The translations under genes were made by a program, and so were the position numbers. A DNA stretch of 64,000 nt from a virus (Duplodnaviria; Caudoviricetes), in IMG/VR virus record IMGVR_UViG_2706796350_000001, positions 1 through 64,000 of that record; one strand, written 5' to 3'. Of the stretch, positions 374 to 18,546 are shown in pieces (positions within the stretch are counted from its first letter, which is position 1; each line of letters begins with the position of its first letter). The notes under the pieces are model-generated. The model ran no database searches. It was given only the letters and a program-made list of their open reading frames with translations, and was not told the DNA's origin.

Positions 374-2850
374 CACTCGAAGTCAATGATGCGATTGCCA
401 GTCGACTGAAGAGACTGACGCCCGCACAACGTGAAGCGTTGCTGAAGAAGGTAACGCCGCGCATCGTCGAGCCGTACATGGCGCATATCCCGCACCCCAA
501 GCAGCAGGTGTTCCTCACACTGAACTGCCGCGAAGCGATGTATGGAGGGGCGGCGGGTGGCGGTAAGTCAGACGCTGTGCTCATGGCCGCATTGCAGTAC
601 GTCGATGTGCCTGGTTACTCCGCGCTGATCCTGCGCCGTACGTGGCCGGACTTGAACGCACCAGGCGCGATCCTCGACCGTGCACGTACGTGGTTGGCGA
701 ACACCGACGCTCAACAGAAAGACGGCGGTCGTCTGTGGGTGTTCCCTTCCGGTGCCAAGCTCTCGTTCGGATACATGCAGCGCGACGCAGACAAGTACAA
801 GTTCCAGTGCTTCCGCAAGGACACCGAACTACTCACGCAGCGTGGGTGGGTGAACGTCGCAGATGTCACGACAGAGGACATGGTTGCTTCGGTGAATCCC
901 AAAACGCGGGCGATGTCGTATGAGCGTGTCAGCAAGACGTTCCAGTACGCGCACAACGACAAGCTCGTGGACATCTACCAGCAGAACGGCGTGAGCATGG
1001 CTGTGACGAAGAATCACACCGTGTGGGCGGGTACGGAGAAGAAACCGGAGTTGAAGCCGTACAGGGCCGATCAGCTACCCGCAACGGCCACCATCCCGCA
1101 AGTCTTCGAGTGGGCAGGTGCACCGGCATCCGGCAAGTCGTTCAAGACCCGCGAGCGCGGCGGTCACGTATTCACGCCGGAACAGTGGTTGAAGTTCCTC
1201 GGTTGGTACATCGCGGAAGGTAACTGCGGTGAGTACGGCGGTCGTTGGGAAGTGAAGATCACGCAGCAGAAGGATGAGGGCTGGGATCAGTTGCGTGCTG
1301 ACCTCGGCGACATCGAAGGTTTGCGGTGGGTCGATCACAAGTTCGTGACGCTGAACAACAAGGCGCTCGTGGAATGGCTTATTCAACACACGAAGACAGG
1401 TGCACATAACAAGCGTCTGCCGAAGGAGGTGTTCGACCTTCAGCCGTCCGATGCAGAGACTCTGCTCAGGGCGATGGTTGCGGGTGATGGATCAGCGATG
1501 AGCGACAAGTGGCTGCGGTATTACACGTACAGCCCCAAGCTCGCAGATGATGTGATGCGCCTGGCAGTCCATGCCGGTTGGAGACCAACTCTCGATGTTC
1601 GGAACGGTGGCAACTACGTCGATGGTTCGATCACGTACATCGTCCATCTCTCGAAGCGTGGGCGGGATACGGGCCTGTTGTCCGCGAAGCAGAACGACAC
1701 CGATACCTCGTTCTGGCGGAACACGCATTACAAGCAGCCCGTGTATTGCGTGGAGACCCCGCGTTTCAACACGCTAGTGATTCGTCACCGTGGGCGTGTG
1801 TCCATGTCCGGCAACTCCGCTGAGTATCAGTTCATCGGCTTCGATGAACTTACGCACTTCGAGGAAGCACCGTACCTGTACCTGTTCTCCCGTCTGCGGC
1901 GTCCAGACCTGGTGTGTCTGAACTGCTCCAACGCGGTGCGCAAGTACGTGTACGAAGGCAAAGCCAAGTGGGCGCACACCTCCCGTAAGGCAGACCGGTG
2001 CAAGCATGTGTTCCCTGACCCCAAGGTGATCGAGCAGTACCCCGAATCGTCGGACGGCATGACCGTGTTCGACATTCCCCTCCGCATGCGTAGTGCCACT
2101 AACCCCGGCGGCATTGGCAACGAGTGGGTGCGTCAGCGTTTCGTGGATGAGGAAACGCGGGTGGAAGACGCAGTGTTCGTTCCCGCCCGACTCCACGACA
2201 ACCCGTCACTGGACCGGGACTCGTACCGCGAATCCCTGTCGCATCTGTCGGTGGTGGACCGTGAGCGATTGGAGAACGGCGACTGGGACGTGACGGAGAG
2301 TGGAGATTTCTTCCAGCGTGGTTGGTGGAAGATCGGCCATTCAGCCAACGACGACAAGGCAGAGCGCGTGCGGTTCTGGGATATGGCTGCGACCGATGGC
2401 GGCGGTGACTACACAGCCTCGTGCTTGCTTGCCCGACTTCCCGATGGCACGTGGGAGATTCAAGACGTGTGGCGTGGGCAGGTGTCCGGTGCCAAGCAGG
2501 AGGCGCTGATCGAACAGTTCGCAAAGGCAGATGGCCGACATGTCCCGATCCGCATGGAGCAAGAGCCGGGATCAGCGGGTAAGAACTTGATCGATCACTA
2601 CGCTCGCAAAGTCCTGTACGGCTACAACTTTGATGGCGTGCGAGCGACGGGCACTAAGGCGGATCGTGCCTACCCGGTTGCCGTGGCAGCAGAGAAGGGG
2701 CACATCAAGATCATGCCCAATCAGTTCACCCGCGAGTTCTTGAACGAACTCGACGCGTTCCCTGGTGGCGCGAACGACGACATGGTGGATGCCCTCAGCG
2801 GTGCCTTCACGTTCCTGTCGTTCGCCAGACGTGGACGACTGCTCGTGTGA
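370..2850 (+). CDS. terL: terminase large subunit containing an intein
   Basis: Walker A-like GGAAGGGKS; Walker B FIGFDELTHF; SATNPGG; C-terminal nuclease motifs RFWDMAAT and DDMVDALS. Confidence 0.95.
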   Translation: MTLEVNDAIASRLKRLTPAQREALLKKVTPRIVEPYMAHIPHPKQQVFLTLNCREAMYGGAAGGGKSDAVLMAALQYVDVPGYSALILRRTWPDLNAPGAILDRARTWLANTDAQQKDGGRLWVFPSGAKLSFGYMQRDADKYKFQCFRKDTELLTQRGWVNVADVTTEDMVASVNPKTRAMSYERVSKTFQYAHNDKLVDIYQQNGVSMAVTKNHTVWAGTEKKPELKPYRADQLPATATIPQVFEWAGAPASGKSFKTRERGGHVFTPEQWLKFLGWYIAEGNCGEYGGRWEVKITQQKDEGWDQLRADLGDIEGLRWVDHKFVTLNNKALVEWLIQHTKTGAHNKRLPKEVFDLQPSDAETLLRAMVAGDGSAMSDKWLRYYTYSPKLADDVMRLAVHAGWRPTLDVRNGGNYVDGSITYIVHLSKRGRDTGLLSAKQNDTDTSFWRNTHYKQPVYCVETPRFNTLVIRHRGRVSMSGNSAEYQFIGFDELTHFEEAPYLYLFSRLRRPDLVCLNCSNAVRKYVYEGKAKWAHTSRKADRCKHVFPDPKVIEQYPESSDGMTVFDIPLRMRSATNPGGIGNEWVRQRFVDEETRVEDAVFVPARLHDNPSLDRDSYRESLSHLSVVDRERLENGDWDVTESGDFFQRGWWKIGHSANDDKAERVRFWDMAATDGGGDYTASCLLARLPDGTWEIQDVWRGQVSGAKQEALIEQFAKADGRHVPIRMEQEPGSAGKNLIDHYARKVLYGYNFDGVRATGTKADRAYPVAVAAEKGHIKIMPNQFTREFLNELDAFPGGANDDMVDALSGAFTFLSFARRGRLLV
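808..1815 (+). mobile_element. intein (336 aa) with LAGLIDADG homing endonuclease, inserted in TerL
   Basis: Starts CFRKDTELLTQRGW after KYKFQ; ends ...RGRVSMSGN followed by Ser; LAGLIDADG-like FLGWYIAEGN and LRAMVAGDGS; removal restores KFQ-SAEYQFIGFDE. Confidence 0.93.
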
Positions 2851-2859
2851 ATGTAGAAA

Positions 2860-2890
2860 GCCCCGGCCCCTGGTGAGAGGGAGCCGGGGC
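2860..2890. terminator. GC-rich hairpin after terL, possible terminator
   Basis: GCCCCGGC...GCCGGGGC stem just after the terL stop; the only A/U run is on the 5' side (AAA). Confidence 0.45.
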
Positions 2891-2941
2891 AATCCGCACC
2901 GAAACAGGAAAAGCAGCATCTGGTCATAGGAGGAACCATAT

Positions 2942-3256
2942 GTGCAACGCAGATTCTACTACAAGAACCAACGGCAGGAGACTCCGGTGAACACGCGGCA
3001 GGCATTGCGAGCCAAGATGGACCGAGACATCCGGTCCCTGAACAAGCGGCGGGTCATCCTGTTCCTTGTTCTGTTTGTGACGATCGCAAACTATCTGATC
3101 CGTCTCTACACGGTGGACTTCCACCCCACGGGAGGCATAGAGGTCTGGATCGCTCACGCGTTTGTCGCTACGATCACTCCACTCGTCGCTGGCATGTTGA
3201 TCGAGCAGAACATGCGGCAGCGCAGGGAAGAGCAGGAGAGCAGGAAACCGAAATGA
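2942..3256 (+). CDS. membrane protein, two TM segments
   Basis: AGGAGGA RBS then GTG; two hydrophobic helices; alternative GTG start at 2987. Confidence 0.65.
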   Translation: MQRRFYYKNQRQETPVNTRQALRAKMDRDIRSLNKRRVILFLVLFVTIANYLIRLYTVDFHPTGGIEVWIAHAFVATITPLVAGMLIEQNMRQRREEQESRKPK

Positions 3257-3274
3257 CAATGCCGTACAAGAAAA

Positions 3275-3460
3275 GTGTTCGTGTACGACAACGGGGCACG
3301 CGTCGTCGAGCAGCCTGTCTTGGAGGCACCGATGTACGACACCCAAACGAATACATGGAGGCTGACGTATCCCGTAACCACCGGATCGAACACGTACCGC
3401 TCCGCAACCAAGCATGTCGGTAACAACCGGCTTATTGAGATCAGGGAAGTAGACGGATGA
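3275..3460 (+). CDS. hypothetical protein; N-terminus possibly displaced by a frameshift (see findings)
   Basis: GTG-start ORF whose stop overlaps the next ATG. Confidence 0.5.
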   Translation: MFVYDNGARVVEQPVLEAPMYDTQTNTWRLTYPVTTGSNTYRSATKHVGNNRLIEIREVDG

Positions 3461-5323: not shown

Positions 5324-7891
5324 GTGGCAGGACGTTTTCTGAACGGTCTGTTCGAGCGCAAAGGCAACTCCCCGAACGAAGCAACGGCACGCGCTGGCGG
5401 TCCAGCTCTTGCTACGTCGGGTATGCCGCTGTCGGGCACCACCGGTCAATGGGACATGGACCAGGCCGTTAATCGCGGCCTCGAACGTGTGGGGATGGTC
5501 TTTCGGTGCGTGGACGCTATCGCACAGACTCAGGCACGTATCCCCATGCAACTCACCCGCATGAACCCCGGCGCTGCCCGTGGTGATGCAGATGTCGTGG
5601 AGGACATCGACATTTGGAAGTTGCTGAACTTCCGAAGCAACCCGTACGAGACCAGTACGCAGTTGCGTTACCGCATCAGCGCCACACTCTTGCTGTCCCG
5701 GCGCGGTGCGTTCATCGAAATGGTGCCGGGTAAAGACGGCAAGGTGGCAGAGCTGCACTTGCTTCTCCCCGGCAGTGTGATGCCGATTCCCGACCCCAAG
5801 CGGTTTGTGAGCGGCTACCAGATCATGCGTGGCGATTCGGTGATCGATGAATTGCCGCCCGAGCGTGTGTGCTGGATCAAGGCGAAGCCGCACCCCACCG
5901 ATCCCTACTCGCAACTGACCCCGCTCATGGCAGCGGGACTCTCGGTAGAGACCGATCTGCTGGCGCGTACGTTCAACCGCAACTTCCTCGCGAACGACGG
6001 TCGCCCCGGCATGCTCGTGACGATCCAGGGTCAGTTGAACCGGGAAGACGCAGACGAGATCAAGTCGCGGTTCAGTGGCGGTTACTCGCAAGCCGGTCGT
6101 ACATCGGTGATTGAGGCGGACGGCATCGACGTTGCCGACTTGGCAGTCAGCCCCCGCGACCTTCAGTGGTCCGAACTCATCAAGGGGTCGAAGGAAGATA
6201 TTCAGCTCGCGTTCGGAGTTCCCGAAAGCGTGATGGGTAACGCAAGCGGGAGGACGTTCGACAATGCCGACGCAGAGCGAGAGAACTTCTACATCGACAC
6301 GATCCAGACCCACTGCGAGCCTATTGCAATGGGCCTCGACGCAATTACGGGAGATCGTAATGATGATGTCGTTGTCACCTACGATTTCAGTGGAGTTGAC
6401 GTTCTTCAGCGCGTCGCTGCACGTAAGCGCGAGGAATACCGTTCGGAGTTCGCCGCCGGTCTCATCACCATCGACGAGTACCGCGAACTCTCGGGTCGAA
6501 CCATCTTCGATGTTGTTGGTTCACGAGTGCTGTTCACCAGCGCAGGACTAGCAATCGCGAAGACCCCCGAGGATCAGGCCGGGATCATGAAGTACCAGCA
6601 AGTAGGTACCTCTCCCGGCGAAGGATTGCAGGGGGCGGCAGCGGCAGAGTCTGGCGCACTGAAGGGTGTCCGCAAGGGCATCCAGGAGGGTGATCGTCAG
6701 CGTGGTAACACACAGGCAGCCACCGCAATTCGGCAACGTGCCATGCAGCTCAGCAAGTCGTTCGGGGATGACCTGGAACGCAAGGACATTGAGACCGTTC
6801 AGAAAACTGGCGAAGCGATCGAGATGGAACACCCCTACTTGATCACCCGCTACAAGATGGAGGGCTTTCTTGAAGGTCAGCTCGTGCAGTGGGACTCTCG
6901 CCAGGAAGATGTTGTTGCCGACCGTCTCAATCACGTGAAGTTCCGCAAGGGCACGCGGCACTGGGAAGAGAAGGGCGGTGACAAGTTCCCGAAGAGCGAG
7001 AAGTGCAAGTACTGCAAGGAACCGGCGACTAAGCGCATCATTCACAGTGAGGGTAGGGCGTACGTCCCTGTATGCGGCGATCACCTGAGCAAGGGCAAGG
7101 AAGCCGCAGCATCGAGCACCCCTCCCGGCTCCGGTCCTGATCCGTCGAACATCGATCGAATCGACGATGTGAAGTCGGGTGCATACGACGACCGCGAGGT
7201 GAAGGCACTCAACCCGTCTTACGCAATCAACGAAGCAAAGTGGACCCAAGACCTCGTTGACGGCCTTGGTGATTTCGTGCGGAAGGCAATGCTCCGTGAA
7301 GCGCGTCGGGTGGCCGGGGAACTGAAGGGTCTCGGCCTGGAAGATGTCACCGACATGGAGCTGTCGGGGCGCGATCCCCTGGTGTCGCTGATCGGTAGCA
7401 AGTCGGCAGTTGAAGCTGCACTCGATCCTGCGTACGGCGAAGTCATGAACATCGTCCGTGGAGCGGCGAAGAACCAGTCGGCACGCCTGAAGAAGTCCAT
7501 CGCAGACATGGACGAGGCGGGTGCATCCATCAAGCAGATCGAGGCCAAGGTTCGGCAGATGACCGGCGGTCGTGCACCGTGGCGCAAGCAACTCGCCATC
7601 AATGTCACGACGGCGGCGGTGGAGTCGGCACGTGCCCTGGTCTACGAACAGGCACCGCGAGGAACGTTCGTCAAGGAGTGGGTGTCGGAACACGACGATC
7701 GTGTGCGGCCCTCCCACGTCAAGGCAGACGGTCAGCGCAAGCCTGCCCACCTCCCGTTCAATGTCGGCGGTTCGCAGTTGCAGTACCCGTGCGACATGAG
7801 CGGTCCGGTTCATGAAGTAGCAAACTGCCGTTGCTATGCCACGTACTCTCTCAGCCCGAAGGCAGAGCAGGCGTTGGAGGCGATTCGATGA
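5324..7891 (+). CDS. portal protein fused to a MuF-like (minor head) domain
   Basis: HK97-type portal motifs (FRCVDAIAQ, PNPYET-like SNPYET, FLANDGRPG, LAFGVP, GRTFDNA); C-terminal KEWVSEHDDRVRPSH...YPCD...EVANCRC typical of Phage_Mu_F; GAAGGAG RBS. Confidence 0.9.
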   Translation: MAGRFLNGLFERKGNSPNEATARAGGPALATSGMPLSGTTGQWDMDQAVNRGLERVGMVFRCVDAIAQTQARIPMQLTRMNPGAARGDADVVEDIDIWKLLNFRSNPYETSTQLRYRISATLLLSRRGAFIEMVPGKDGKVAELHLLLPGSVMPIPDPKRFVSGYQIMRGDSVIDELPPERVCWIKAKPHPTDPYSQLTPLMAAGLSVETDLLARTFNRNFLANDGRPGMLVTIQGQLNREDADEIKSRFSGGYSQAGRTSVIEADGIDVADLAVSPRDLQWSELIKGSKEDIQLAFGVPESVMGNASGRTFDNADAERENFYIDTIQTHCEPIAMGLDAITGDRNDDVVVTYDFSGVDVLQRVAARKREEYRSEFAAGLITIDEYRELSGRTIFDVVGSRVLFTSAGLAIAKTPEDQAGIMKYQQVGTSPGEGLQGAAAAESGALKGVRKGIQEGDRQRGNTQAATAIRQRAMQLSKSFGDDLERKDIETVQKTGEAIEMEHPYLITRYKMEGFLEGQLVQWDSRQEDVVADRLNHVKFRKGTRHWEEKGGDKFPKSEKCKYCKEPATKRIIHSEGRAYVPVCGDHLSKGKEAAASSTPPGSGPDPSNIDRIDDVKSGAYDDREVKALNPSYAINEAKWTQDLVDGLGDFVRKAMLREARRVAGELKGLGLEDVTDMELSGRDPLVSLIGSKSAVEAALDPAYGEVMNIVRGAAKNQSARLKKSIADMDEAGASIKQIEAKVRQMTGGRAPWRKQLAINVTTAAVESARALVYEQAPRGTFVKEWVSEHDDRVRPSHVKADGQRKPAHLPFNVGGSQLQYPCDMSGPVHEVANCRCYATYSLSPKAEQALEAIR

Positions 7892-8862
7892 TCAACCTGA
7901 CACCGGAACAGCACGATGCCCTGTTCGGCGCTCTCGCTGCCGTACAGACGGCATTTCAACCCCGTCGAACCGTGCTCACCGAGGACAACTACGACGGGAC
8001 CGCATGTAAGTCGGTCGCGGAGCTGGCTAGCGCTAATCAGTGCACCGAGCTGAAGGCTGCGGTCTACGCGGTACAGAATCTCGAAGGCGCGGTGTACCAG
8101 GATGCTTGCCAATTCATGAAGGCGTTCTCTGCGTCGGACACGTCGGGGTGGACGAGCACCTGTGTGATGCTGACGTTCGATCGGCCCACCGCCATGCAAC
8201 TCTCGATCGATGGCGGTGACCCGTGGGACCAGATGCACGTCACTCTGGCGTTCTTCGGTGAAGCCGATCAGCTCGACGATGAAGACAAGGCAGCGATCCG
8301 TGACGCATGTGCACTAGTCGCTGCTGAGTACAAGCCGTTCGTGGCAAAGGCAAACGGGATCACGCGGTTCAGTTCGGGCGAGGAAGATAGCGAAGACGCC
8401 AAAGATGCGATTGTCGTGAACATCGACTCGTATCAGGTTTCGCGCATTCGTGAAACTCTCATGGCTCGACTCGCCAAGGTGATGCTCACCCCATCGCTGG
8501 CACACGGGTTCACCCCACACTGCACTCTTGGATGGATCGACGCGGACGACCCCATGCCGCTCGACCGTTGGGCACCGATGGATGCACGCATCGTGAGTAT
8601 CGAGGTTTGGGAGGGATCGAAGCGCGATGCAATCCCTCTCGGCACCCCGTACATTCCGGCAGAAGATGCGCCGGACGAAGAGAGCGAAGTGGCGATCACC
8701 CCGGCCCCTGTTGTTCCGCCCGCTCCTGAAGACGAGAAGGACGTGTACCGGGGTGCAGGCTCTGTGCCCAATCGCGGGACCAGTAAGCGCCGTAAGGAGA
8801 TCATTCGCCGCGCCCGTGGCCTGCTAGCAGACCCGACAGAGGAACGGAAGCACTACCTATGA
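7888..8862 (+). CDS. 2H phosphoesterase (2'-5' RNA ligase / Acb1-like fold) protein
   Basis: Two HxT motifs: MHVTLAFFG (8236) and PHCTLGW (8518). Confidence 0.8.
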   Translation: MINLTPEQHDALFGALAAVQTAFQPRRTVLTEDNYDGTACKSVAELASANQCTELKAAVYAVQNLEGAVYQDACQFMKAFSASDTSGWTSTCVMLTFDRPTAMQLSIDGGDPWDQMHVTLAFFGEADQLDDEDKAAIRDACALVAAEYKPFVAKANGITRFSSGEEDSEDAKDAIVVNIDSYQVSRIRETLMARLAKVMLTPSLAHGFTPHCTLGWIDADDPMPLDRWAPMDARIVSIEVWEGSKRDAIPLGTPYIPAEDAPDEESEVAITPAPVVPPAPEDEKDVYRGAGSVPNRGTSKRRKEIIRRARGLLADPTEERKHYL

Positions 8863-9977
8863 TGTTTCCTGTATCAGTAAAGTCGCGCCTGATGTCTCTC
8901 GACCTCGAAGAGAAGACGTGGTTCATCGATCCCGAGACCAAGGTCAAACACGTTCGGGACGCTGAGTATTGGGGTATGCCGGTCGGTACTCCGATCACGC
9001 CTGGCATGAAGCCACAGAAGCTGAAGCCGGTTGCCGCTCTGCCGACCACCACGCCGAAGAAGCCGAAGACCCCGAAGAGTTCAGCGGCACGTCGTGCATC
9101 GAGCACCGACGACTCTCTGGTGGCGCACAGCCGTACACGGCATCAGCCCAAGTCTCGCGTACACCCGCCGTTCGTCCAGCCGGAGGGTTTGGACGAATAC
9201 CGAACGAACCAGATTCGGAAGACGTACGAGGCACGTACCCGTATCCCTCCCCGCAACATCGATCGCTATGAGGGGTTGACGAGCGCGGAGATGCACGATG
9301 ACTGGGCGGAAGAGAGCAAGCGTTACCGTCTTCCCAAATGGACATCGAGCGACAACAAAGAGCCGGACAAGCGCACGCCGACCGAGAAGAAGGTCGGAGC
9401 GGCGGTCGTCAGCTACACGGGCGATAACTACAGCTACATGAATGGCCTCTTGCGCGGTGATGACGTGGCCGTTGCTGATCTTTCCTCTGACGAAGTTCTG
9501 GAATTGGAAAAAGAGATCAAGTACATGGACAAGGCTATGCGTCCTGTCGGTCGACCTCTGCTGGTTCACCGCACCACGTCCGCGCCTGTCTTTCAGAGCT
9601 TGGAGCCGGGCGACCAGTTCCGCGACAATGGTTACGTGTCCACCACGATTTTCGAGGGTTATCTTTCGGAAGTCGAAGAAGAGCTGTACTACGGCGAGAG
9701 CGACGTGCAGTTGTCCATCCTGGTCCCGCCGGAGGCCGAAGGCGCGTTCGTTACCGCGTTCCAGGATCGAAAGGGCGAGTTCGACATCGGAGAAGGTGAA
9801 GTGGTGCTTGCACGCGGCACCGAGTTCCGCGTCGTCAGCCGCGAGGGCAACAATCTCGTGATCGAGGTAGTGCCGCCGGGTACCGAAGGCTCTACCGATT
9901 ACACCGACAACCTGCGCCTCCTGGCACAGTCGAAGTATGAACAGATGCTGTCCGAGGAAGAAGGAGAAGACTGGTGA
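8859..9977 (+). CDS. ADP-ribosyltransferase (VIP2/Alt-like R-S-E clade) with N-terminal tag
   Basis: YTGDNYSYMNGLLRG, catalytic R in LVHRT (9570), YVSTT (9639), GEGEVVLARGTEFRV ExE (9792-9800). Confidence 0.85.
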   Translation: MMFPVSVKSRLMSLDLEEKTWFIDPETKVKHVRDAEYWGMPVGTPITPGMKPQKLKPVAALPTTTPKKPKTPKSSAARRASSTDDSLVAHSRTRHQPKSRVHPPFVQPEGLDEYRTNQIRKTYEARTRIPPRNIDRYEGLTSAEMHDDWAEESKRYRLPKWTSSDNKEPDKRTPTEKKVGAAVVSYTGDNYSYMNGLLRGDDVAVADLSSDEVLELEKEIKYMDKAMRPVGRPLLVHRTTSAPVFQSLEPGDQFRDNGYVSTTIFEGYLSEVEEELYYGESDVQLSILVPPEAEGAFVTAFQDRKGEFDIGEGEVVLARGTEFRVVSREGNNLVIEVVPPGTEGSTDYTDNLRLLAQSKYEQMLSEEEGEDW

Positions 9978-12900
9978 CTAGCACCGCAGAGCGTTTCGCG
10001 TGGACTGGTGACCAGGGCATCACCGTTACTCGAAGCACCAAACCTGAAGACGACCCCACCGTGTTCGAGGACAAGGCGGGGGTGAAGAAGGTTCGGGACG
10101 CTGACTACTGGGGTGCGCCCGTGGGCACTCCGATCGTGGCTGGGATGCGTGCCGCCCATCGCGAGGGCGGTGCCGCAGGGGTTCGCAAGTTCCTACGGAC
10201 GCAGGGCAAGCCGAAAAAGACCCCTAGCTCGCGTTCTGGCGGTCGAACTGGTGGCACAGGTAAGCGAACAGCGGCCAAACCCACAACGGTCGCCACAGGG
10301 CGCACACAGCGCCCCGCATCCGAGCGCGCCCGTGCCATTCAGGACGCGTGGGGTGATCGTGTCGAACCAGGCTCCCGTGACTTCCGTCGACGTGGTGCCA
10401 GCAACCGTGAGTACACCGAGGCGTATGTATCCAAGGCGGAACTTACAAAAGCACGTGAGACCGCCATCGAACGTGCGCGTACCAAAGCGCCGAAGCCCGA
10501 GAAGCCGACGATCGCACGCAACAAGTGGATCATCAAGGAGTTCGGTGGGCCGGGTACAGGTGCCGGTGACATCCGTGGCAACTCGCATGACCGCAGCCGT
10601 CGATCGTGGGCGGTCTATGTGGCGTTCGGAGGATTCAACGTCAAGACGGGCAAGGACAAGGGGTATGTCCCGTGTCTCGGTTGCGGCGCGAAGATGTCGT
10701 GGCATGACAACGCCTCGTTCTCGAAGTTCCCGAAGTTCGAGCAGGACAAGATCATCACCACTGGTGACGGTGGTTCGTACAACCCACAGAACCTCATGCC
10801 TCTGTGTGCGGCGTGCAACAACAAGCGCGGGAGCAAGAAGTTGTGGGACATTCCGGCGTTCGGCAAACAGTCCAAGCCCTCTTGGTACAACGACAAGTTC
10901 GCAGACATGGTGAAGCGAACACGAGCAAGCGAGAAGGCGAAGGCGATTCGTCCACGTGGTGAGTTCCCCGAAGTAGCTATGCCTGTTCCTCCCGGCCATC
11001 CCGGTCGCGTCCGTGCGGTCAAGGGGGACGCGCTCGACCGTTCCGAACGATTTTGGGACGTTTCCGATACCGAAGGAACTGAGGATCAGGGCCAGCCGTC
11101 AACCGGCGATCGCGTCACGGCGCATCTCTGGAACTACGACGGCAGGCACAACGATGTCGAGGCCGGTGTCTATCCGCCTGATGTCGAAGACGCTGAGAAG
11201 ACCATCGTCGGCACCCTGTATGTCGAAGAGGTCGATTCTCTGTTCGGCAAGTACACCCGGCATGTGATTGTCGGAGACAACGGCGAAGTTCGCCATATCG
11301 AGGAAGAGAGCATCGAGTTGGTTGCCAAGTCTCCCGACTACCGAGATCGCCAACTGTTCACCAAGACGCGTAGCCGCGCACTCGGTGTGGAGCTGGACCT
11401 GGAAGAGAAGCGTGGGCTTCGCCGTGTCCGTACCGCAGAGGGTGTTGAGAAGTACGGCATGCCCATCGGCTCGATCATCGGCAGCGCACCCCGGCCTCCG
11501 AAGGGCCGTGGAAAGGGCAAGAGCACGAAGCCGAAAATCAACGATATGCGAGGCGGCAAGCGACGCATCAGCGGTAAGAACGGCAAGGTCGAGAAGCCAA
11601 CTGCTAGCGAGATTAAGAGTTTCGAGAAGTGGGTACTTGACGATCTTGGTGTTCCGAAGAAGAACCTCGACGACTTCAAGAACGGCGTAAAGGATTCCCG
11701 TGGTGTTGTTGATCTCTACATGCCAAGGGCAGGCGCGACGATCAGCATCGTAGATCGACCTGGCGAGACAATCGGAATCATCAATATCCAAACGGGTAGC
11801 CAAGACCCGCAGACAGTCGAGCTGAGTCTCGGCGGACGCGATCGGGACTTGGCATGGGAGGTCTTGGCCGTAGCCCTGCATCGCATCGAGAAGCGCAACA
11901 ACGGTGAAGGTGACGACTACGACGAGGACGGGTTCTGGCCTGCCAACCGATCACCGCGTGAATATGACGCACTACCTGAGTACTGGGGTGGTGTGCGTGG
12001 TGTCGACTGGTCGGAAGAGGGCGACGACACTCGGCCAACCGATGAGGCGCGTCGTTCCCTGATCGAGAAAGAAGCGGCAGACCTGGGGTTCAAGTGGGAT
12101 ACCACGCCGGGAGGCGCTTATCGTCAGTACCACGCCAACGAAGATGTCGGGCTGTGGGCGAAGGAGACTGCCAACGCCGTGATGCGTTCGCACGAAGAGC
12201 AGTTCCCCGGCTTTGCCAAATTGCACGCTTCGATCATCTCTGGCAAGCACCGTCGCGCTATTGCGTGGAATGGTCTAGGAGTTGGCGATGGCAATGACGT
12301 AAACGGGAAATGGCGCAGAGCCCAGGTCACCATCGTTGGTCTTAACCCCGACTGGTTCGGAGAGGATTACGACAATCCGACAAACAATATGCGTGTCAGT
12401 CGCTCTCGGCAAGCATCGAAGCGTGACGGGAAGCTATACCGCTGGCACTCGATCGATTACGAAGACCTGTCAGGGACGATGGGTGTCGATAAGTACGATG
12501 CGCAGTTGATCGGCACGTTGACGCATGAACTCGGGCACACGGTCGGAAACATCTTGCAAGGCAACATGGTCAGAGATGGTGATTTTGCGAACTACGTAAG
12601 AGGGGTCGATCTGGATAACGACGAGGCGACAGTCAGTACGTTCTTCCGTGGTCAGTTGCTCGATCTGCTTTACGAGTTCGGGATTCTTAAGGAAACCGTG
12701 AGCGCCAAGGAACTCGACAACCCGTTGACTTTCCAAAGCGCAGCCAACAAGGATCTCATGCCGCTTGGTGCCATCGACACAGAGGCACTTGCGTACCATG
12801 TATCGGTTTACGGTTCTACTAATTTCGCCGAGATGTTCGCGGAAACATGGGCGGCATACCAACTGGACTCGAACCCCACACAGTTCGTACGGGAACTTGG

Positions 12901-13003
12901 AGCGTTGATGGAAGACGCCCTGAATATGTACCTGGACGAAGAGACCGGCGCACGTGCACAGTTCAAGACGTTCACCGCGACAGGAGGATTGGAAATCTCA
13001 TGA
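9974..13003 (+). CDS. multidomain head-module protein: tag, HNH-like nuclease, unknown domain, second tag, unknown domain, zincin metallopeptidase
   Basis: CLGC...GGSYNPQNLMPLCAACNNKRG; LTHELGH (12524) with downstream YGSTNFAEMFAE. Confidence 0.8.
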   Translation: MTSTAERFAWTGDQGITVTRSTKPEDDPTVFEDKAGVKKVRDADYWGAPVGTPIVAGMRAAHREGGAAGVRKFLRTQGKPKKTPSSRSGGRTGGTGKRTAAKPTTVATGRTQRPASERARAIQDAWGDRVEPGSRDFRRRGASNREYTEAYVSKAELTKARETAIERARTKAPKPEKPTIARNKWIIKEFGGPGTGAGDIRGNSHDRSRRSWAVYVAFGGFNVKTGKDKGYVPCLGCGAKMSWHDNASFSKFPKFEQDKIITTGDGGSYNPQNLMPLCAACNNKRGSKKLWDIPAFGKQSKPSWYNDKFADMVKRTRASEKAKAIRPRGEFPEVAMPVPPGHPGRVRAVKGDALDRSERFWDVSDTEGTEDQGQPSTGDRVTAHLWNYDGRHNDVEAGVYPPDVEDAEKTIVGTLYVEEVDSLFGKYTRHVIVGDNGEVRHIEEESIELVAKSPDYRDRQLFTKTRSRALGVELDLEEKRGLRRVRTAEGVEKYGMPIGSIIGSAPRPPKGRGKGKSTKPKINDMRGGKRRISGKNGKVEKPTASEIKSFEKWVLDDLGVPKKNLDDFKNGVKDSRGVVDLYMPRAGATISIVDRPGETIGIINIQTGSQDPQTVELSLGGRDRDLAWEVLAVALHRIEKRNNGEGDDYDEDGFWPANRSPREYDALPEYWGGVRGVDWSEEGDDTRPTDEARRSLIEKEAADLGFKWDTTPGGAYRQYHANEDVGLWAKETANAVMRSHEEQFPGFAKLHASIISGKHRRAIAWNGLGVGDGNDVNGKWRRAQVTIVGLNPDWFGEDYDNPTNNMRVSRSRQASKRDGKLYRWHSIDYEDLSGTMGVDKYDAQLIGTLTHELGHTVGNILQGNMVRDGDFANYVRGVDLDNDEATVSTFFRGQLLDLLYEFGILKETVSAKELDNPLTFQSAANKDLMPLGAIDTEALAYHVSVYGSTNFAEMFAETWAAYQLDSNPTQFVRELGALMEDALNMYLDEETGARAQFKTFTATGGLEIS

Positions 13004-13599
13004 TGTACCCACCAGGAGAGTCGCCACTCGAAGGACTCACGACGCAGTTTGTCGACATGATCACTGGATTCGCAATCGATCAGCCACTCGGGCCACAGGC
13101 AGGGCCGGGATACTGGGAAGACAACCCCGAAGAGTACGAGCGAATCGTCGCTATGCGCGAGGCCGCAGGGATCACCGTTGCCGACGACATGCTCGGTCCC
13201 GAGGTTGACGTTGCTGTGTCGGATGGGTCTACCGGAGTCGCCAAGCGGAAGAAGGCAGCGCCGCGCAAACCTGCATCCAAACTCGCCGCACGCAACAACC
13301 GCAGCCGCAGCGCCAAGGCACGCTCATTGGCCCTGGAACTGAAGATGGAGTCCAAATCGGCCCCTGGAGTCTTCCCGGCACAGTTGCGCCGTTACTGGCT
13401 TGGAGAGGGCCTTGCACGGTGGGCCACCACGCCGACCCCGTATCGTTCTCTCGTCTCGGCGCTACGCAGTGAGGGAGTGCCGGGTCGGATGATCAATGGC
13501 CTGGCAGCGCGTCTCTACCATTGGCATTTTGGCAAATGGCCGGGCAAACGTGGTGAGAAGGCATGGAACGCACTCGGGTACTTGGAAGGTGACGACTGA
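13000..13599 (+). CDS. head-module protein with C-terminal LRRYW...HWHFGKWPG domain
   Basis: GGAGG RBS, ATG overlapping the previous stop; the domain resembles small modules I recall from actinophage head genes (unverified). Confidence 0.7.
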   Translation: MMYPPGESPLEGLTTQFVDMITGFAIDQPLGPQAGPGYWEDNPEEYERIVAMREAAGITVADDMLGPEVDVAVSDGSTGVAKRKKAAPRKPASKLAARNNRSRSAKARSLALELKMESKSAPGVFPAQLRRYWLGEGLARWATTPTPYRSLVSALRSEGVPGRMINGLAARLYHWHFGKWPGKRGEKAWNALGYLEGDD

Positions 13600-14291
13600 T
13601 GGCTAAGAGCATTCAGCTTTACGCAGCACGAGGAACTGGGGAGCCGTACGGTGCCAACATGCTTTCCAACGTGACCCGCCTCTTGGATCGCGACGTGTTC
13701 ACTATTCGCGAGATCGTGTATCCCGCAGCGATCAGCGGTGCCGGTGGCTTGGAGTCGTGGCAGGAATCCGCCGCCACTTTCCGCGCCTTCATGGATCGCG
13801 AGCTATCCGCAAAACGACCGTGGATGGGAGTTGGCTATTCACTGGGCGCGCTGTGCCTTGGCGATCTGGTCGGCACTCTGCCACTGTCGCAGTGCAAAGG
13901 GATCGGCCTCTTGGCAGACCCACGTCGTCATCGCACGCAGTACTACGGCAGCCGCAAACCGAGTGGGTGGGGAATTGCGGGTGAACGGTTCGTCGGCAGA
14001 GGTGACTACCCCGTGTGGTCCCTGACGGAACCCGGCGACCCGATCAGTGAACTCCCTGGGGATAACGGGTGGCGCAACGTCGCCATGCTTCTCGGATTCG
14101 GCAAACAGCCACGCCCTGCACGAGACTGGGATATGGCGTACTCGTTCGAGTGGCTGAGTCACTATCCTCCGCTGGGCAACCGGCACACGAACTACCATCG
14201 TGAGGTGTTCCCCGGTACGCGTAAGAAGTACACCGAAGTCATGGCCGACCTACTCAATGAGCAGGGGCGGAAGATCATCAGGGAGATGTGA
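13599..14291 (+). CDS. cutinase-like alpha/beta serine hydrolase (LysB/PE-PPE-like)
   Basis: ARGTGE, GYSLGA nucleophile elbow, LADPRR, GDPIS, HTNYH. Confidence 0.8.
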   Translation: MAKSIQLYAARGTGEPYGANMLSNVTRLLDRDVFTIREIVYPAAISGAGGLESWQESAATFRAFMDRELSAKRPWMGVGYSLGALCLGDLVGTLPLSQCKGIGLLADPRRHRTQYYGSRKPSGWGIAGERFVGRGDYPVWSLTEPGDPISELPGDNGWRNVAMLLGFGKQPRPARDWDMAYSFEWLSHYPPLGNRHTNYHREVFPGTRKKYTEVMADLLNEQGRKIIREM

Positions 14292-14863
14292 TGGCCGAGT
14301 ACATGTTGTTCCGCGTACGTCGTGACACTGCCGATCAGTGGTCCGCCCTCAACCCCGTTTTGCCAGATGGTGAATTGGCGTTCGACAAGACCACGAGCCA
14401 GATGAAGGTGGGCGACGGCGTTCGAGCATGGAACGATCTGCCGTTCATGTCCGGCGGTATCGATCTGACGACTCTGACCATCGCGTCCACGAAGATCAGC
14501 GACTCCACGGCAGTCGGTCGATCAGTGCTAACCGCAGCATCACAGGCAGCGGCTCGTACGGCCATCGGTGCGGGTACCGGCAACGGCACCTCGAACCTGA
14601 CTATCGGCACCACGTCGACGACGGCAGCAGCCGGTAACGATGCCCGCCTCAGCGACATGCGTACGCCGAAGGACGGCAGTGTGAGCACGGTGAAGATCGT
14701 GGATCAATCGGTGACTAATGCGAAGTTGGCTACCGAGGTGCAAAACGCTATTGCCAATGCGGGAAGCAATGCCGTTCAAGGGTCGGGTCTCACCTTGGCG
14801 ACTAGCGCTACTGTCCCGGCAGCCGGTACTCCGAACACCACGATCACGGTGGTGGGTCCGTGA
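14288..14863 (+). CDS. virion fibre-like protein with Mtd/hyaluronidase-type N-terminal module
   Basis: WSALNPVLPDGELAFDKTTSQMKVGDGVRAWNDLPF; Thr/Ala-rich remainder. Confidence 0.7.
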   Translation: MMAEYMLFRVRRDTADQWSALNPVLPDGELAFDKTTSQMKVGDGVRAWNDLPFMSGGIDLTTLTIASTKISDSTAVGRSVLTAASQAAARTAIGAGTGNGTSNLTIGTTSTTAAAGNDARLSDMRTPKDGSVSTVKIVDQSVTNAKLATEVQNAIANAGSNAVQGSGLTLATSATVPAAGTPNTTITVVGP

Positions 14864-15507
14864 GTGGTGTGTATCGCGGCACCACACCGGGCCGGGTCTA
14901 CATCGGTACGCAACTCGCCAAGGCCGTTTACAGGGGTGTCACCGAGATATGGCGGCGTGACCCTACCTACGTGGACGTTAGCGCGTCAGGGACGTACACA
15001 GCGCCCTCTTTCGCCGTCTACGCGGACGTTGGCGTCCTCGGTGCCGGGGGTGGTGGTGCTACGGGGGACAACGGTACGTCAACCGCGAACGGCGAGGGGG
15101 GTAACGCAGCGACGTGGCAGTTCCAAACGATCGCAGTAAATCCCGGTGACGTTCTCAACTTCACAATCGGAAGTGGTGGCACGGGAGCAACTGGCGGCAC
15201 CAAGCGTTCAGGTTCAGCGGGAGGCTCGTCGTCGGTCACCGGCCCCGGCCTTAACCTGACATCGAGCGGTGGTTCACCTGGCGTTGGTACAACAGCAAAC
15301 CGAGACCCCGTAGGCCACGGTGCCGCGTCATACACCGCACCCAACGGAGCGACCTTCCCTGGCAGTTCTGATGTCGGCGCTGACACGAACGGAAACACCC
15401 CTGGCGGTGGAGGTGGCGGTGGGTCTTACCCCGGCTGGTTCGGTGCTGTGAGAGCAGGCCGCAACGGTGGCAACGGAGCGGGAAGAATCCGCTGGCGAAG
15501 CTACTGA
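14860..15507 (+). CDS. glycine-rich structural protein
   Basis: GAGGGG, GSGGTG and PGGGGGGG repeats typical of actinophage minor tail/fibre proteins. Confidence 0.7.
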   Translation: MSGVYRGTTPGRVYIGTQLAKAVYRGVTEIWRRDPTYVDVSASGTYTAPSFAVYADVGVLGAGGGGATGDNGTSTANGEGGNAATWQFQTIAVNPGDVLNFTIGSGGTGATGGTKRSGSAGGSSSVTGPGLNLTSSGGSPGVGTTANRDPVGHGAASYTAPNGATFPGSSDVGADTNGNTPGGGGGGGSYPGWFGAVRAGRNGGNGAGRIRWRSY

Positions 15508-15584
15508 TCATCAAGCTCCCGATACAGTAATGAGACGAACACGCGTCTCGCCCTCGAAATACGGAAACGGAAAGGTGTCCGGCA

Positions 15585-17039
15585 ATGCAGAACCTCAATT
15601 ACAAGGCAGTCCCGATCAGTGATGTGGGGGACGGCGGAACCGGAGTGGTCGAGGCCATCGTTTCGGTCACCGGCCTGAAGGACAACGTGAACGACATCAT
15701 TCTCCCCGGTGCGTTCCAGAAGTCGCTGTCCAAGCGCACTCCCAAGGGTGTGTGGCACCACAACATTCAGGAGTCGGTTGCGAAGACGACCGAAATCAAG
15801 GAACTCGCACCCGGCGATCCTAAGCTCCCCAAGACGCTCCCCAACGGTGAACCGTGGCCGGAGAACGCAGGCGGTCTCTTGGTGAAGATGGCCTTCAACC
15901 TCGGCACCAGCCGTGGCCGTGACGCATACGAAGACGTGAAGTTCTTCGGCACCGACCAGGAGTGGTCGATCGGTTACAGCGTGCCGACCGGTGGGGCCAC
16001 CATCGACAAGAAGACCGGCACCCGGCTCATCAACTCGCTCGACCTGTTCGAGTACAGCCCGGTTCTGTTTGGTGCAATGCCAAACGCTCGAACGGTTTCG
16101 GTGAAGTCGGCACAGGAGGCACACAAGGTCATCGTCGGCCTGAACACCCCCGAGGGGCTGGAACTGAAGTCGTTCCTGGACGAGATCGTTGCAGATGAGG
16201 TCAAGGCCGCGAAGAAGAAGGGTAAGGATGAGGAAGACGATCCTGAGAATGCCGACGACGAGACCCCCGACGAAACCGACGACCCCGAGGTCGAGGACGA
16301 AGAGGAAGTAGTCGAGGACGACGAAGAGGTCGACACCGCGAAAAAGAAGCGCAAGGGCAAGAAGTCCATGCAGATCGACGCCACTGGACTCGACATGCTC
16401 GACCGTGCGGTGAAGTCTCTGTCCTCGCTCTACGATCACCTGGTTTCGGAGGTCAAGGAAGCGGCAGAAGGCGACGAGCCGGAAGAGTCGAAGGAAGAAT
16501 CACTGGCCGGTCTTGTGGAGGCAGCCGGATTGGACGCTCACGACGACGCTGCGGCGTTCGATACCGCCTATGCAGACGGGGACGCCGAAGGCATGGAAGA
16601 GTCGGCCAACGCGGTCCTGGACGCCGTGGAAGTGGCACGGGACTCGGATGACGCCGACACGGCTGCACTGAAGCGTGTGACGTCCTACATCTCGGCGGCG
16701 TTCACCAACGTCGAACCGTCCGATGAGGAACCTGCGGAAGAGAAGCAGTTCCAGACCAAGAAGAAGTTCTCGAAGAACGAGCGGGACAAGGATGCGGCAA
16801 AGGGAGCTGCAATGCCCGATGGTTCGTTCCCCATCGAGAACGAGGCAGACCTGAAGAATGCGATCAAGGCATGCGGTCGGGCCAAGGACAAAGAGGCCGC
16901 GAAGAAGCACATCAAGAAGCGTGCCAAGGCTCTTGGTCTGGAAGACCTGATCCCCGCAGACTGGGACGAGTCGAAGGCCGGGGGCGTGCTTTCCCTGGAT
17001 CGCAAGTCCCTGTTCGCAGAGTTCGGAATTGAGGTCTAG
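15585..17039 (+). CDS. HK97-type prohead protease with acidic scaffold-like linker and extra C-terminal domain
   Basis: DIILPGAFQKSL, VWHHN (His), WSIGY (Ser), LFEYSPVLFGAMPNA; C-terminal PDGSFPI..DLKNAI..GRAK module. Confidence 0.9.
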   Translation: MQNLNYKAVPISDVGDGGTGVVEAIVSVTGLKDNVNDIILPGAFQKSLSKRTPKGVWHHNIQESVAKTTEIKELAPGDPKLPKTLPNGEPWPENAGGLLVKMAFNLGTSRGRDAYEDVKFFGTDQEWSIGYSVPTGGATIDKKTGTRLINSLDLFEYSPVLFGAMPNARTVSVKSAQEAHKVIVGLNTPEGLELKSFLDEIVADEVKAAKKKGKDEEDDPENADDETPDETDDPEVEDEEEVVEDDEEVDTAKKKRKGKKSMQIDATGLDMLDRAVKSLSSLYDHLVSEVKEAAEGDEPEESKEESLAGLVEAAGLDAHDDAAAFDTAYADGDAEGMEESANAVLDAVEVARDSDDADTAALKRVTSYISAAFTNVEPSDEEPAEEKQFQTKKKFSKNERDKDAAKGAAMPDGSFPIENEADLKNAIKACGRAKDKEAAKKHIKKRAKALGLEDLIPADWDESKAGGVLSLDRKSLFAEFGIEV

Positions 17040-17178: not shown

Positions 17179-18546
17179 ATGACCAGCACCCTTTCCGCCG
17201 ATCGGATCAAGGAACTGAGCACCGCGCTCGAAGCCAAGCAGGAGTTCATCAAGGACGGCCTCGCAAACGGCGTCAAGATCGACGGCAACAACGTCGAGAT
17301 CAAGTCGGACGACTACGCCGCGCTTCAGAGCGCAATGGGCGAGGTCAAGCAGATCGAGTCGCTGATCGCGATGGAGCGTCTGCCCGAGCACGTCAAGTCC
17401 GTCATCGATCCTTCGCATGCCGGTGAGTACCAGTCGGCTGCTGTCGCCGCCGCCGCTCAGGCATTCGGTGCCGACGCCGCGAACCAGATGAAGTCCAGCG
17501 GCACCCTCGGCGAGATGTTCATCAAGTCCGACGACTTCCAGGAGTTCAAGAAGTCGGGCAGCTCGACCATGCGTCAGGCATGGGAGATGGAAGCCAAGGA
17601 CATGGCTTCGATGGGCATGGAGCAGAAGGACATCTACAGCGGTCTGCTGACCGGCTCGGTGAATCCCCGTGGCTTCGGCTCCGTCCAGTTCGATCCGGCT
17701 GTCCCCCGTGGTCAGCGCACCGCCCGAGTCCGCAACCTGTTCCCGGTTGCGGCCACCTCGGCGAACCTGATCGACTACTTCCGCGTTCTGGGATTCGCGG
17801 AAAACGGCGGCAACGGCAACGCTCGCACCGTCCGTGATCGCGCCGCCGCCGATGGCATCGCCGCTCCTGCCGGTACCGCGACCGACACGTTCGGTCTGAA
17901 GCCGAAGTCGAACCTTCGCTTCGAGTCGGCACAGGCACCGGTCCGCACCATCGCCCACTGGGAGGCTGCACACCGGAACGTCATCAGCGACGAGCCGCAG
18001 CTTCAGTCGACGATCAACAACGAGCTGCTGTACGGCCTGGCCCTGGCAGAGGATGATCAGATCCTCAACGGCGACGGCCAGACCGAGAACCTGCTCGGCA
18101 TTCTGAACACCCCCGGCATCCAGACCTACACTCAGGTCGCTGCCGACCAGAAGTCCGACGCCCTGCGTCGTTCGGCCACCCTCTCGGTGATCGCGAACTA
18201 CCCCGGTACCGGCTTCGTCCTCCATCCGCACGACTGGGAGGACATCGAGCTTCAGAAGGCCAACGGTGACGGCCAGTACATGCTCGTGACCAACGTCGCG
18301 GTCGGTGCCACCACCTCGGTGTGGCGTCAGCCCGTCGTCGAGACCCCGGCTATCGCAGAGGGTTCGTGGCTGACCGGTGCCTTCGGCATCGGCGCACAGC
18401 TCTACGATCGTCAGGTCGCTTCGATCCGCATCGCGGAGCAGCACGCCGATTTCTTCGTGCGCAACGCCATCGCGATCCTGGCGGAAGAGCGTCTGGCCCT
18501 CGCGGTCAAGCGCCCGGAGTCGTTCGTCAAGGGCACCTTCGTCTAA
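17179..18546 (+). CDS. major capsid protein (HK97 fold) with N-terminal delta domain
   Basis: Coiled-coil N-terminus; RVRNLFPV, VRTIAHW, EDDQILNGDG, GILNTPG, FVRNAIAILAEERLALAVKRPESFV. Confidence 0.95.
   Translation: MTSTLSADRIKELSTALEAKQEFIKDGLANGVKIDGNNVEIKSDDYAALQSAMGEVKQIESLIAMERLPEHVKSVIDPSHAGEYQSAAVAAAAQAFGADAANQMKSSGTLGEMFIKSDDFQEFKKSGSSTMRQAWEMEAKDMASMGMEQKDIYSGLLTGSVNPRGFGSVQFDPAVPRGQRTARVRNLFPVAATSANLIDYFRVLGFAENGGNGNARTVRDRAAADGIAAPAGTATDTFGLKPKSNLRFESAQAPVRTIAHWEAAHRNVISDEPQLQSTINNELLYGLALAEDDQILNGDGQTENLLGILNTPGIQTYTQVAADQKSDALRRSATLSVIANYPGTGFVLHPHDWEDIELQKANGDGQYMLVTNVAVGATTSVWRQPVVETPAIAEGSWLTGAFGIGAQLYDRQVASIRIAEQHADFFVRNAIAILAEERLALAVKRPESFVKGTFV

Follow-up and report, generated by a model that had tools for sequence, protein, structure and literature searches.

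We analyzed a 64,000-nucleotide stretch (hereafter, the window) that makes up the first 64 kb of the IMG/VR soil-phage record IMGVR_UViG_2706796350_000001, which is 83,324 bp long and rated complete by CheckV. The subject is a short peptide tag that occurs three times in two otherwise unrelated enzymes encoded among the head genes. A preliminary description of the sequence had proposed that the tag recruits these enzymes to the procapsid, that cleavage at Glu-x-Lys (ExK) sites releases them, and that they are injected with the DNA. At the nucleotide level, only the protease gene matched known phages (approximately 78% identity), namely the Gordonia rubripertincta phages Chidiebere, Gray, ChisanaKitsune, and DalanDe, of which ChisanaKitsune and DalanDe are assigned to cluster DQ (PMC9671378). 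The window holds the head-gene block of a phage akin to the cluster DQ Gordonia phages. The gene order in Chidiebere is identical: portal, RNA ligase (2H), VIP2-like ADP-ribosyltransferase, 971-residue protein, small protein, minor tail proteins, lysin B, protease, and major capsid protein. No close relatives of the window ADP-ribosyltransferase protein were found in a search of IMG/VR.

Translation placed the three tag peptides exactly where they had been reported (8946-8996, 10085-10135, and 11420-11479), and likewise the motif LDLEEK at 8898-8915 and 11393-11410; all window features given here lie on the plus strand. The first copy is located at the N-terminus of the protein encoded by the ADP-ribosyltransferase gene (8859-9977; phrog_3895, 8e-84). 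A leader (8859-8942) with LDLEEK and PETK (8934-8942) as candidate cuts is followed by tag copy 1 (VKHVRDAEYWGMPVGTPITPGMKP; 8943-9014, profile E = 2.8e-23), a basic Pro-rich linker (9015-9188; K+R 0.18, P 0.15, and D+E 0.08 over 60 residues) with a low predicted local distance difference test score (pLDDT), and an ADP-ribosyltransferase domain of the VIP2/exoenzyme type (9354-9842; PF03496, 2.1e-11). The other two copies lie in a 1009-residue protein (9974-13003; phrog_960, full length) consisting of two modules, the first with tag copy 2 and an HNH nuclease motif, the second with tag copy 3 and a zincin-like HExxH domain. In the first module, the candidate cut F-EDK (10067-10075) precedes tag copy 2 (10082-10150; E = 8.9e-20), and the HNH region lies at 10673-10834 (PF01844, 5.3e-05, 23.7 bits vs a cut-off of 21.4). 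In the second (11393-11500), LDLEEK serves as the candidate cut before tag copy 3 and the residues PRPP (E = 1.4e-14). Copy 3 is a divergent variant, VRTxEGxxxYGxPIGSxI, which is also present in many other clusters. The C-terminal module (11609-13000) carries HELGH at 12524-12538 (residue 851), a motif that was read directly, and is probably a zincin-like metallopeptidase. It had no match in Pfam, NCBIfam, or the PDB sequences; its ESM Atlas features matched zincin-like, M90, and ATLF clusters at approximately 0.9, which we treat as a lead only. By ESM features only (approximately 0.9), the module also resembles a viral peptidase cluster, 98% of whose members have Pfam DUF7211. The two halves of the 1009-residue protein occur apart in other architectures (P0102, P0020, and P0045), recombined at the internal tag.

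Upstream of the tagged genes is a portal-MuF fusion of 855 residues (5324-7891; PF04860, 1.3e-45; phrog_2662, 3e-163), with a portal domain at residues 59-390 and a MuF-like domain at residues 731-838 (7514-7837; PF04233, 6e-06, below its cut-off). Next to it is an untagged 2H/LigT-like phosphoesterase of 324 residues from the ATG at 7888 (7888-8862; PF13563, 9.5e-12; PF02834, 5e-08), the C-terminal tail of which ends in EERK-HYL. Elsewhere, the 2H domain is joined to the tag (P0078 and P0116) or to a phrog_6439 domain (locus L004). Downstream, an untagged small head-module protein of approximately 200 residues (13000-13599; phrog_18402, phrog_29860, and phrog_6439) contains the paired candidate cuts L-ELK and M-ESK (13336-13356) ahead of a phrog_6439 domain (13375-13560). 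It is followed by an untagged LysB-like cutinase/esterase of 230 residues with the motif GYSLG (13599-14291; phrog_102 endolysin) and by two tail-fibre-like genes with an Mtd_N domain and a Gly-rich domain (14288-15507; PF18454 and PF21722, minor tail protein PHROGs). The block thus had the content originally listed, except that these two tail-fibre-like genes had been left out and that the "cutinase" is a LysB homologue. Its orthologue in Chidiebere is annotated as lysin B, and a LysB of cluster DQ has been described (PMC9671378). The esterase is probably a lysis enzyme, as it is in the relatives, rather than cargo, and we found nothing that places it in the head. The site of the LysB gene and the two tail-fibre-like genes, with the cargo genes on one side and the protease and capsid genes on the other, is unusual, and Chidiebere has the same layout. 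All junctions among the eight consecutive genes from the portal-MuF gene to the Gly-rich gene are overlaps of one or four bases (ATGA, GTGA, and TGATG), which suggests that the cargo, LysB, fibre-like, and portal genes form one translationally coupled block.

Conservation and distribution of the tag

A profile scan of the whole genome detected the three tag copies and no others. Of the 51 bases compared between the two close copies, 10 differ, and different codons encode 5 of the 14 residues that both have in common; these differences rule out a recent DNA duplication as their source. Because identical residues are encoded by different codons, selection acts on the tag peptide, which is neither a chance match nor a recent DNA repeat. 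The consensus of the module is Phi-E-x-K / x-R-H-V-R-D-A-x-(Y/F)-W-G-x-P-V-G-T-P-I-x-P-G-M-K-P (Phi, hydrophobic; the first slash and those in the cut sites below mark the putative cut), of which the tag accounts for approximately 27 residues with a core of approximately 20. In a logo of 133 anchored copies, the order was Phi, E (52%), x, K (56%, plus 11% R), V, R (87%), H, V (84%), R, D (79%), A, x, Y/F, W (84%), G (100%), x, P (100%), V, G (100%), T (90%), P, I/L, x, P, G, M, K, and P.

When a tag profile of 40 columns built from 11 copies was searched with HMMER against 1.84 billion representative proteins, 221 clusters matched at E ≤ 1e-3 and 77 at E ≤ 1e-10. A single tag was present in 105 of 155 scanned proteins with a significant match (a set that includes the two window proteins and near-identical homologues), two in 37, three in nine, four in three, and five in one, with a spacing of roughly 330-450 residues in the multi-tag proteins. 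A degenerate DNA pattern for YWGxPVGTPI found eight loci in IMG/VR with nine matches, all of which had the extended motif in frame, and a word-based homologue search with the tag returned three proteins only. No match at E ≤ 10 was obtained in a Pfam scan of nine tag segments or tag-only mini-proteins, nor with the tag profile against the PDB chains, and among the PHROGs the tag is covered only by the unnamed PHROG 21406 and by PHROG 960. Identity of the tag with Pfam DUF7211 was rejected, as the motif differs and the Pfam scans of the tag segments were empty. The Lys/Arg/Pro-rich linker reported behind the tags is strong in the window (K+R 18-28% and D+E 3-13% in the 60 residues after the tags) and only modest across the family (K+R 17.9% vs 13.6%).

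Among 50,697 records of cultured phages, tblastn with two single tag peptides matched 24 records each. The carriers were Chidiebere-like Gordonia phages, Gordonia phage Stormageddon, and cluster-W-type Mycobacterium phages such as Argie, all with hosts in the Mycobacteriales. Meanwhile, the exact DNA pattern gave one true match (in Dactylosporangium roseum) and one chance match in 185,579 bacterial and archaeal species, each represented by one genome. By these searches, the module is essentially phage-specific. In the D. roseum match (NZ_CP073721.1), a stop codon directly precedes the open frame, which begins V-A-V-R-R-V-R-D; the tag may therefore be the start of the gene, which is possibly part of a prophage.

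The proteins that carry the tag are diverse. In 28 representative clusters, an N-terminal S78 protease domain is followed 10-40 residues further on by the tag and then by 400-3300 more residues; one such chain has a ParB-like segment and a C-terminal zeta toxin, and Argie gp8 runs from MuF through protease, tag, linker, and phrog_6439 domain to a coiled-coil region. Among 79 shorter tag proteins, a Pfam census counted zeta toxin (seven), GNAT (four), DUF7178 and ADP-ribosyltransferase (three each), topoisomerase IB, DUF3626, S78, and Tudor-like domains (two each), and single kinase-like and other domains. This repertoire is that of the phage polyvalent proteins, which Iyer et al. (2017) predicted to be packaged and injected (PMC5512222).

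In most contexts sampled, the tag genes lie between the portal-MuF and capsid genes, and wherever the available flanking DNA was long enough, the setting was a head module. The order is portal-MuF, 2H + phrog_6439 protein, protease-tag polyprotein, and capsid gene at locus L004; terminase, portal-MuF, and tag protein at L006; polyprotein and capsid gene at L018; and portal-MuF, a tagged 319-residue protein, a five-tag protein, S78 protease, and capsid gene at L029. At L030, a MuF gene overlaps the start of the tagged gene. L031 has a series of large genes, of which three are tagged, together with ADP-ribosyltransferase, topoisomerase IB, and DUF7178 genes, and no head gene is visible in the available flanking DNA. 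The expectation that a profile search would find the tag in head modules and on varied, unrelated enzymes was therefore borne out in most contexts sampled. Within the window itself, the tag had been presented as common to the head-module enzymes; it is shared by two of the five, the ADP-ribosyltransferase and the 1009-residue protein, and is absent from the 2H, small, and LysB proteins. The 2H and phrog_6439 domains recur in the head polyproteins of other phages, and the corresponding window proteins may be cargo that enters by another route.

The phrog_6439 domain (RRYWL...MINGLAxxLH), which is without a Pfam family, lies beside or inside tag proteins in the window, in Chidiebere, at L004:9573-11264(-), at L005:850-2082, at L009:1068-2114, and in Argie gp8 (L002, residues ~1214-1279). 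It is joined to 2H, to the N-terminal half of the 1009-residue protein (P0102), or directly to the front of the tag. It may be a second head-cargo or adaptor domain, and it is absent from the complete genome of Stormageddon, which carries the tag.

ExK sites, the capsid protein, and the prohead protease

The presence of ExK ahead of the tag, first noticed in the window, holds for the family: E-x-[KR] occurs at most nine residues upstream in 161 of 202 tag copies (80%) vs approximately 8% expected from the E-x-[KR] density in the same proteins, and 130 of these sites share one common register. An alignment of 32 protease-tag sequences shows almost no variation at the E or the K. AlphaFold confidence is low up to ExK and high from the next residues on. 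Furthermore, at least eight clusters start directly at the tag, stand-alone genes begin at the predicted new N-terminus (MT/RHVRD, MGV/RHVRD, and METK/V), and other stand-alone genes have only an amphipathic leader of approximately 20 residues and ExK before the tag. A tandem form, ExK-(T/S)-aromatic-Y-I/L-D-P-E-x-K, occurs in other clusters. Because the switch in confidence, the starts of the stand-alone genes, and the recombination of the halves of the 1009-residue protein all fall at ExK, this point is a module border.

The frequency of ExK had been put forward as a comparison between head genes and other genes, and in the window the motif was enriched only in the head-module proteins. Seven of these contained 35 ExK motifs vs 18.9 expected from 30-residue local shuffles (z 3.9) and 13 of [LMIVF]ExK vs 4.1 (z 4.7), with the control motifs K.E, E.R, D.K, EK, E..K, and E...K flat, whereas fifteen other long window proteins had 25 ExK motifs vs 24.2 expected. 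The comparison thus came out in favour of the original proposal. Protein by protein, with whole-protein shuffles, the surplus came from the capsid protein (6 vs 1.1), the portal-MuF protein (8 vs 3.3), and the 2H protein, and not from the protease or the 1009-residue protein. Chidiebere orthologues keep the ExK at borders where the flanks diverge: before all three tags, at two sites before phrog_6439, at two after the protease domain, and at one in the portal-MuF protein. Before tag copy 1, ETK is kept and LDLEEK is not; the corresponding sites before copies 2 and 3 are AEIK and LETK in Chidiebere. The portal-MuF linker contains L-ERK/D at 6776-6784, where Chidiebere has two LETK sites, and the fusion may be cut into portal and MuF pieces.

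The HK97-type major capsid protein (17179-18546; PF05065, 1.6e-39) has a 150-residue delta domain, with the predicted cut GMEQK/DIY after position 17628. HK97 gp5 is cut at K103/S104. The earlier alignment by eye of this site with the HK97 delta-domain cut was upheld, because K150/D151 falls within three residues of the K103/S104 equivalent. The two proteins share 37% identity (E = 5e-54), with G178 aligned to HK97 G128; K150/D151 lies 27 residues before G178, and the HK97 cut lies 24 before G128. In the site G-M-E-Q-K/D-I-Y, E148, K150, and D151 do not vary across capsid proteins that are 46-80% identical. Edman sequencing of the capsid protein of LittleE gave DLDRNNGTGGYAVP (PMC3706429), and in Omega gp15 the corresponding DLDRNGG comes right after G-E-E-Y-R, giving E-x-R/D. 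Omega and LittleE thus show the pattern G-Phi-E-x-[KR]/D, to which the window site G-M-E-Q-K/D conforms; unlike the window, they have Arg rather than Lys at P1, and no tagged cargo was reported (PMC3706429).

The adjacent S78 (HK97-type) prohead protease of 484 residues (15585-17039; phrog_80, 2e-79) matched PF04586 above its cut-off (7.8e-10) and TIGR01543 below its curated cut-off (2.6e-13). It has no tag. Its protease domain (~15639-16112) is followed by two candidate release cuts, L-ELK (16161-16169) and D-EVK (16197-16205), and by a scaffold-like region. The system resembles HK97 in its protease family (PF04586), its homologous capsid protein with an N-terminal delta domain, and a predicted cut after Lys. 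The catalytic domain of HK97 gp4 is reportedly followed by a C-terminal capsid-targeting part (Duda, Oh, and Hendrix, 2013); in 28 clusters the tag stands at that position, and the window protease has an acidic scaffold region where the polyprotein clusters have the tag. A D/E-rich run of approximately 45 residues (16200-16350, residues ~207-255) lies directly after the protease domain and the two ExK sites, and electrostatic pairing between this acidic run and the basic cargo linkers during assembly is possible. In addition, the S78 proteases of this group have a conserved G-L-E-x-K before the first protease strand (L005:3110-3400, L004, and L010; NLNYK at window 15585-15610), which may belong to the fold or be one more site of self-processing. 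A Foldseek search with the model of a related protease-tag protein found the protease fold of herpesvirus assemblin and T4 gp21, and returned nothing for the tag.

On the register, border positions, and enrichment described above, we consider cleavage at ExK likely. It could be argued that this is all the module does, the folded tag presenting ExK to the prohead protease from the primed side, with no role in loading or retention and with the proteins entering the head by other means. The fixed register of ExK directly before the tag would fit such a cleavage cassette, as would the position of the tag at the protease-polyprotein junction, which resembles a release site, and at the borders between modules. 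However, the clusters that start at the tag have nothing upstream to remove, the ExK sites of the capsid, protease, portal, and small proteins have no tag, so that the tag is not needed for cutting, and some 20 conserved folded residues far exceed the known sites of prohead proteases. We therefore regard a purely cleavage-related function as unlikely.

Structure and proposed function of the tag

In the AlphaFold model of a natural protease-tag fusion, the tag has a pLDDT of 89-97 after a disordered linker. In a control, the ADP-ribosyltransferase protein, which has no protease domain, residues 31-50 reached a pLDDT of 95 in an otherwise poor model; the alignment for this control was deep at the tag. 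The predicted fold is a strand, a one-turn helix, and a strand, and the tag is predicted to be an autonomous mini-fold. Docking of the tag on the protease, suggested by the fusion model, was rejected, as the control gave comparable tag confidence: because the tag folds confidently alone, its confidence in the fusion is not a sign of docking. Neither model gave evidence that the tag binds the capsid, portal, or protease. An autonomous mini-fold would also suit a structural spacer that has spread by module shuffling, with no role in targeting or processing and with the enzymes being ordinary cytoplasmic late proteins. The core residues are, however, invariant under synonymous change, the tag is confined to head modules and all but missing from bacterial genomes, and its association with ExK and the protease domain is fixed, which makes a spacer very improbable.

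We propose instead that the tagged enzymes are virion-internal cargo, cut after the Lys of ExK by the S78 protease, with the tag acting as a determinant of loading or retention; judged from the sequence evidence, the chances for and against this reading as a whole are about equal. The module would consist of an optional amphipathic leader, the Phi-E-x-K site, the tag of approximately 27 residues, and the basic Pro-rich linker. The cargo would be made together with the head proteins from the coupled operon and enter the procapsid, where the S78 prohead protease would cut it after the Lys of ExK; the same rule would apply to the removal of the capsid delta domain and to the freeing of the protease from its scaffold part. 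Each enzyme module released in this way would keep the tag at its new N-terminus. In other words, if ExK is the cut, the tag is not removed and remains on the released enzyme. Delivery into the host with the DNA would follow, by analogy only. From its gene context, the tag is most likely a determinant of head incorporation or retention, and for a role in head loading we would put the chances slightly below even. Compared with the mechanism in the preliminary description, cutting at ExK is well argued, loading by the tag is argued from context, and a binding partner for the tag gained no support.

Several points weigh against this reading. HK97 has F-N-K at its cut, with Phe rather than Glu at P3, and unlike the window it has no cargo enzymes and no tag. 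The capsid proteins of Omega and the window align weakly (E = 0.61), so that direct homology around the cut was rejected and the Omega/LittleE cut is a precedent by analogy only. Away from the tags, the wider family shows no excess of plain ExK (ratio 0.97) and only a modest one of Phi-ExK (1.23, z 2.6). The tag is not the sole route into the head, because the window protease and the 2H, small, and LysB proteins are untagged. The tag is highly conserved in phages with three unrelated capsid families (phrog_10, 777, and 2522), which speaks against direct binding to a variable capsid surface and suggests a conserved partner, with the protease, MuF, DNA, and a host factor as candidates. Finally, we found no virion proteomics or N-terminal data in the literature for this phage or its tag-bearing relatives.

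The conservation across unrelated capsid proteins would also be in keeping with a universal partner, for instance DNA or a conserved factor of the host, and with it a tag that acts after assembly: together with the basic linker, it could tie the cargo to the packaged DNA or lead ejection, or the tag could, once injected, attach to a conserved host protein. Tag and linker both have a net basic composition, every released module would retain its own tag, and the cultured carriers all infect Mycobacteriales. That each released module has its own tag suggests a function following cleavage, in retention, DNA association, or ejection. On the other hand, no DNA- or host-binding family in Pfam or the PDB matches the tag, and its position right behind the protease domain points to assembly rather than to action in the host. 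Such a post-assembly role seems to us rather unlikely, although somewhat less so than a pure cleavage function.

A further alternative is that the tag binds the portal-MuF protein or a phrog_6439 adaptor and is a non-covalent stand-in for covalent MuF-toxin fusions. A MuF domain is encoded beside or within the tagged proteins in most contexts examined, and phrog_6439 co-occurs with the tag in the window, Chidiebere, Argie, L004, L005, and L009. In other actinophages, the ADP-ribosyltransferase is joined directly to MuF (PMC7302621). MuF is nevertheless common in actinophages anyway, and phrog_6439 is missing from the tag-bearing Stormageddon genome; we hold such a link to be improbable.

The reading of the tagged enzymes as processed virion cargo has its closest counterpart in T4. 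Its internal proteins IPI-III and Alt are loaded into the prohead, cut at a short motif by the prohead protease, and injected with the DNA (background in PMC5512222). Like the tag proteins, they are unrelated proteins, including an ADP-ribosyltransferase, that have a common short peptide and are encoded with the head genes. The capsid targeting sequence (CTS) of T4 is an N-terminal leader of approximately 10 residues that is removed by the S77 protease gp21, which cuts after Glu (L/I-x-E). In the window, in contrast, the protease is of the S78 family, the putative cut is after Lys, and the tag of approximately 27 residues lies downstream of the cut and would be retained; it also occurs internally, up to five times per chain, and has no sequence similarity to the CTS. 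Encapsulin cargo-loading peptides are C-terminal and extended, and bind a defined pocket of the shell. They resemble the tag in being short, portable, and carried by varied enzymes, which they direct into an HK97-fold shell, whereas the tag is N-terminal to its module, predicted to be folded, and without sequence similarity to them.

MuF toxins and polyvalent proteins share with the tag proteins the ADP-ribosyltransferase, zeta toxin, GNAT, HNH, zincin peptidase, and ParB-like domains, the location in head modules, and the predicted packaging and injection (PMC5512222). The 1009-residue protein, like polyvalent proteins, combines two effector-type domains, HNH and HExxH, in one chain encoded in a head module, and related tag proteins reach 3500 residues, with ParB-like and zeta-toxin domains. 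In the systems described there, and in the MuF-VIP2 fusions of Microbacterium phages (PMC7302621), the effectors are tied to the head covalently, by fusion to MuF or the portal, whereas in the window MuF is on the portal and the effectors have a separate short tag. Pfam and PHROG scans found no MuF match in the ADP-ribosyltransferase or 1009-residue proteins, which are thus not MuF-fused toxins. The accessible text of these two sources (PMC5512222, PMC7302621) does not name the tag.

The system is therefore known in kind, following the logic of T4 CTS cargo and of polyvalent and MuF-linked effectors. What is new is a tag family, unnamed and predicted to be folded, that occurs in S78-protease phages whose cultured members infect Mycobacteriales. 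Also new are the placement of the tag behind the putative cut, its repetition as a module along single chains, and the specific E-x-K/R rule for that cut. To our knowledge, detailed accounts of proteins that are packaged in the capsid and injected exist only for T4-like phages and a few giant ones, and we know of no way other than MuF fusion by which effectors enter the head in HK97-type actinobacterial phages. More tentatively, the module may be a portable address for loading and delivery, such that any carrier would be taken into the procapsid of these Mycobacteriales phages, trimmed at ExK by the S78 protease, and ejected into the host with the DNA, with cassettes swapped freely; it would then be the HK97-lineage counterpart of the T4 CTS, independent in origin and acting from the mature N-terminus.

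Laboratory hosts are available for the cultured carriers (M. smegmatis for cluster W and G. rubripertincta for cluster DQ), so the idea is directly testable. If it is correct, the specificity of one S78 protease lineage would be defined, and the module would offer a handle for loading chosen proteins into the capsids of mycobacteriophages and Gordonia phages. Furthermore, packaged effectors, including ADP-ribosyltransferases, zeta toxins, acetyltransferases, nucleases, and peptidases, would become predictable from sequence in hundreds of phages.

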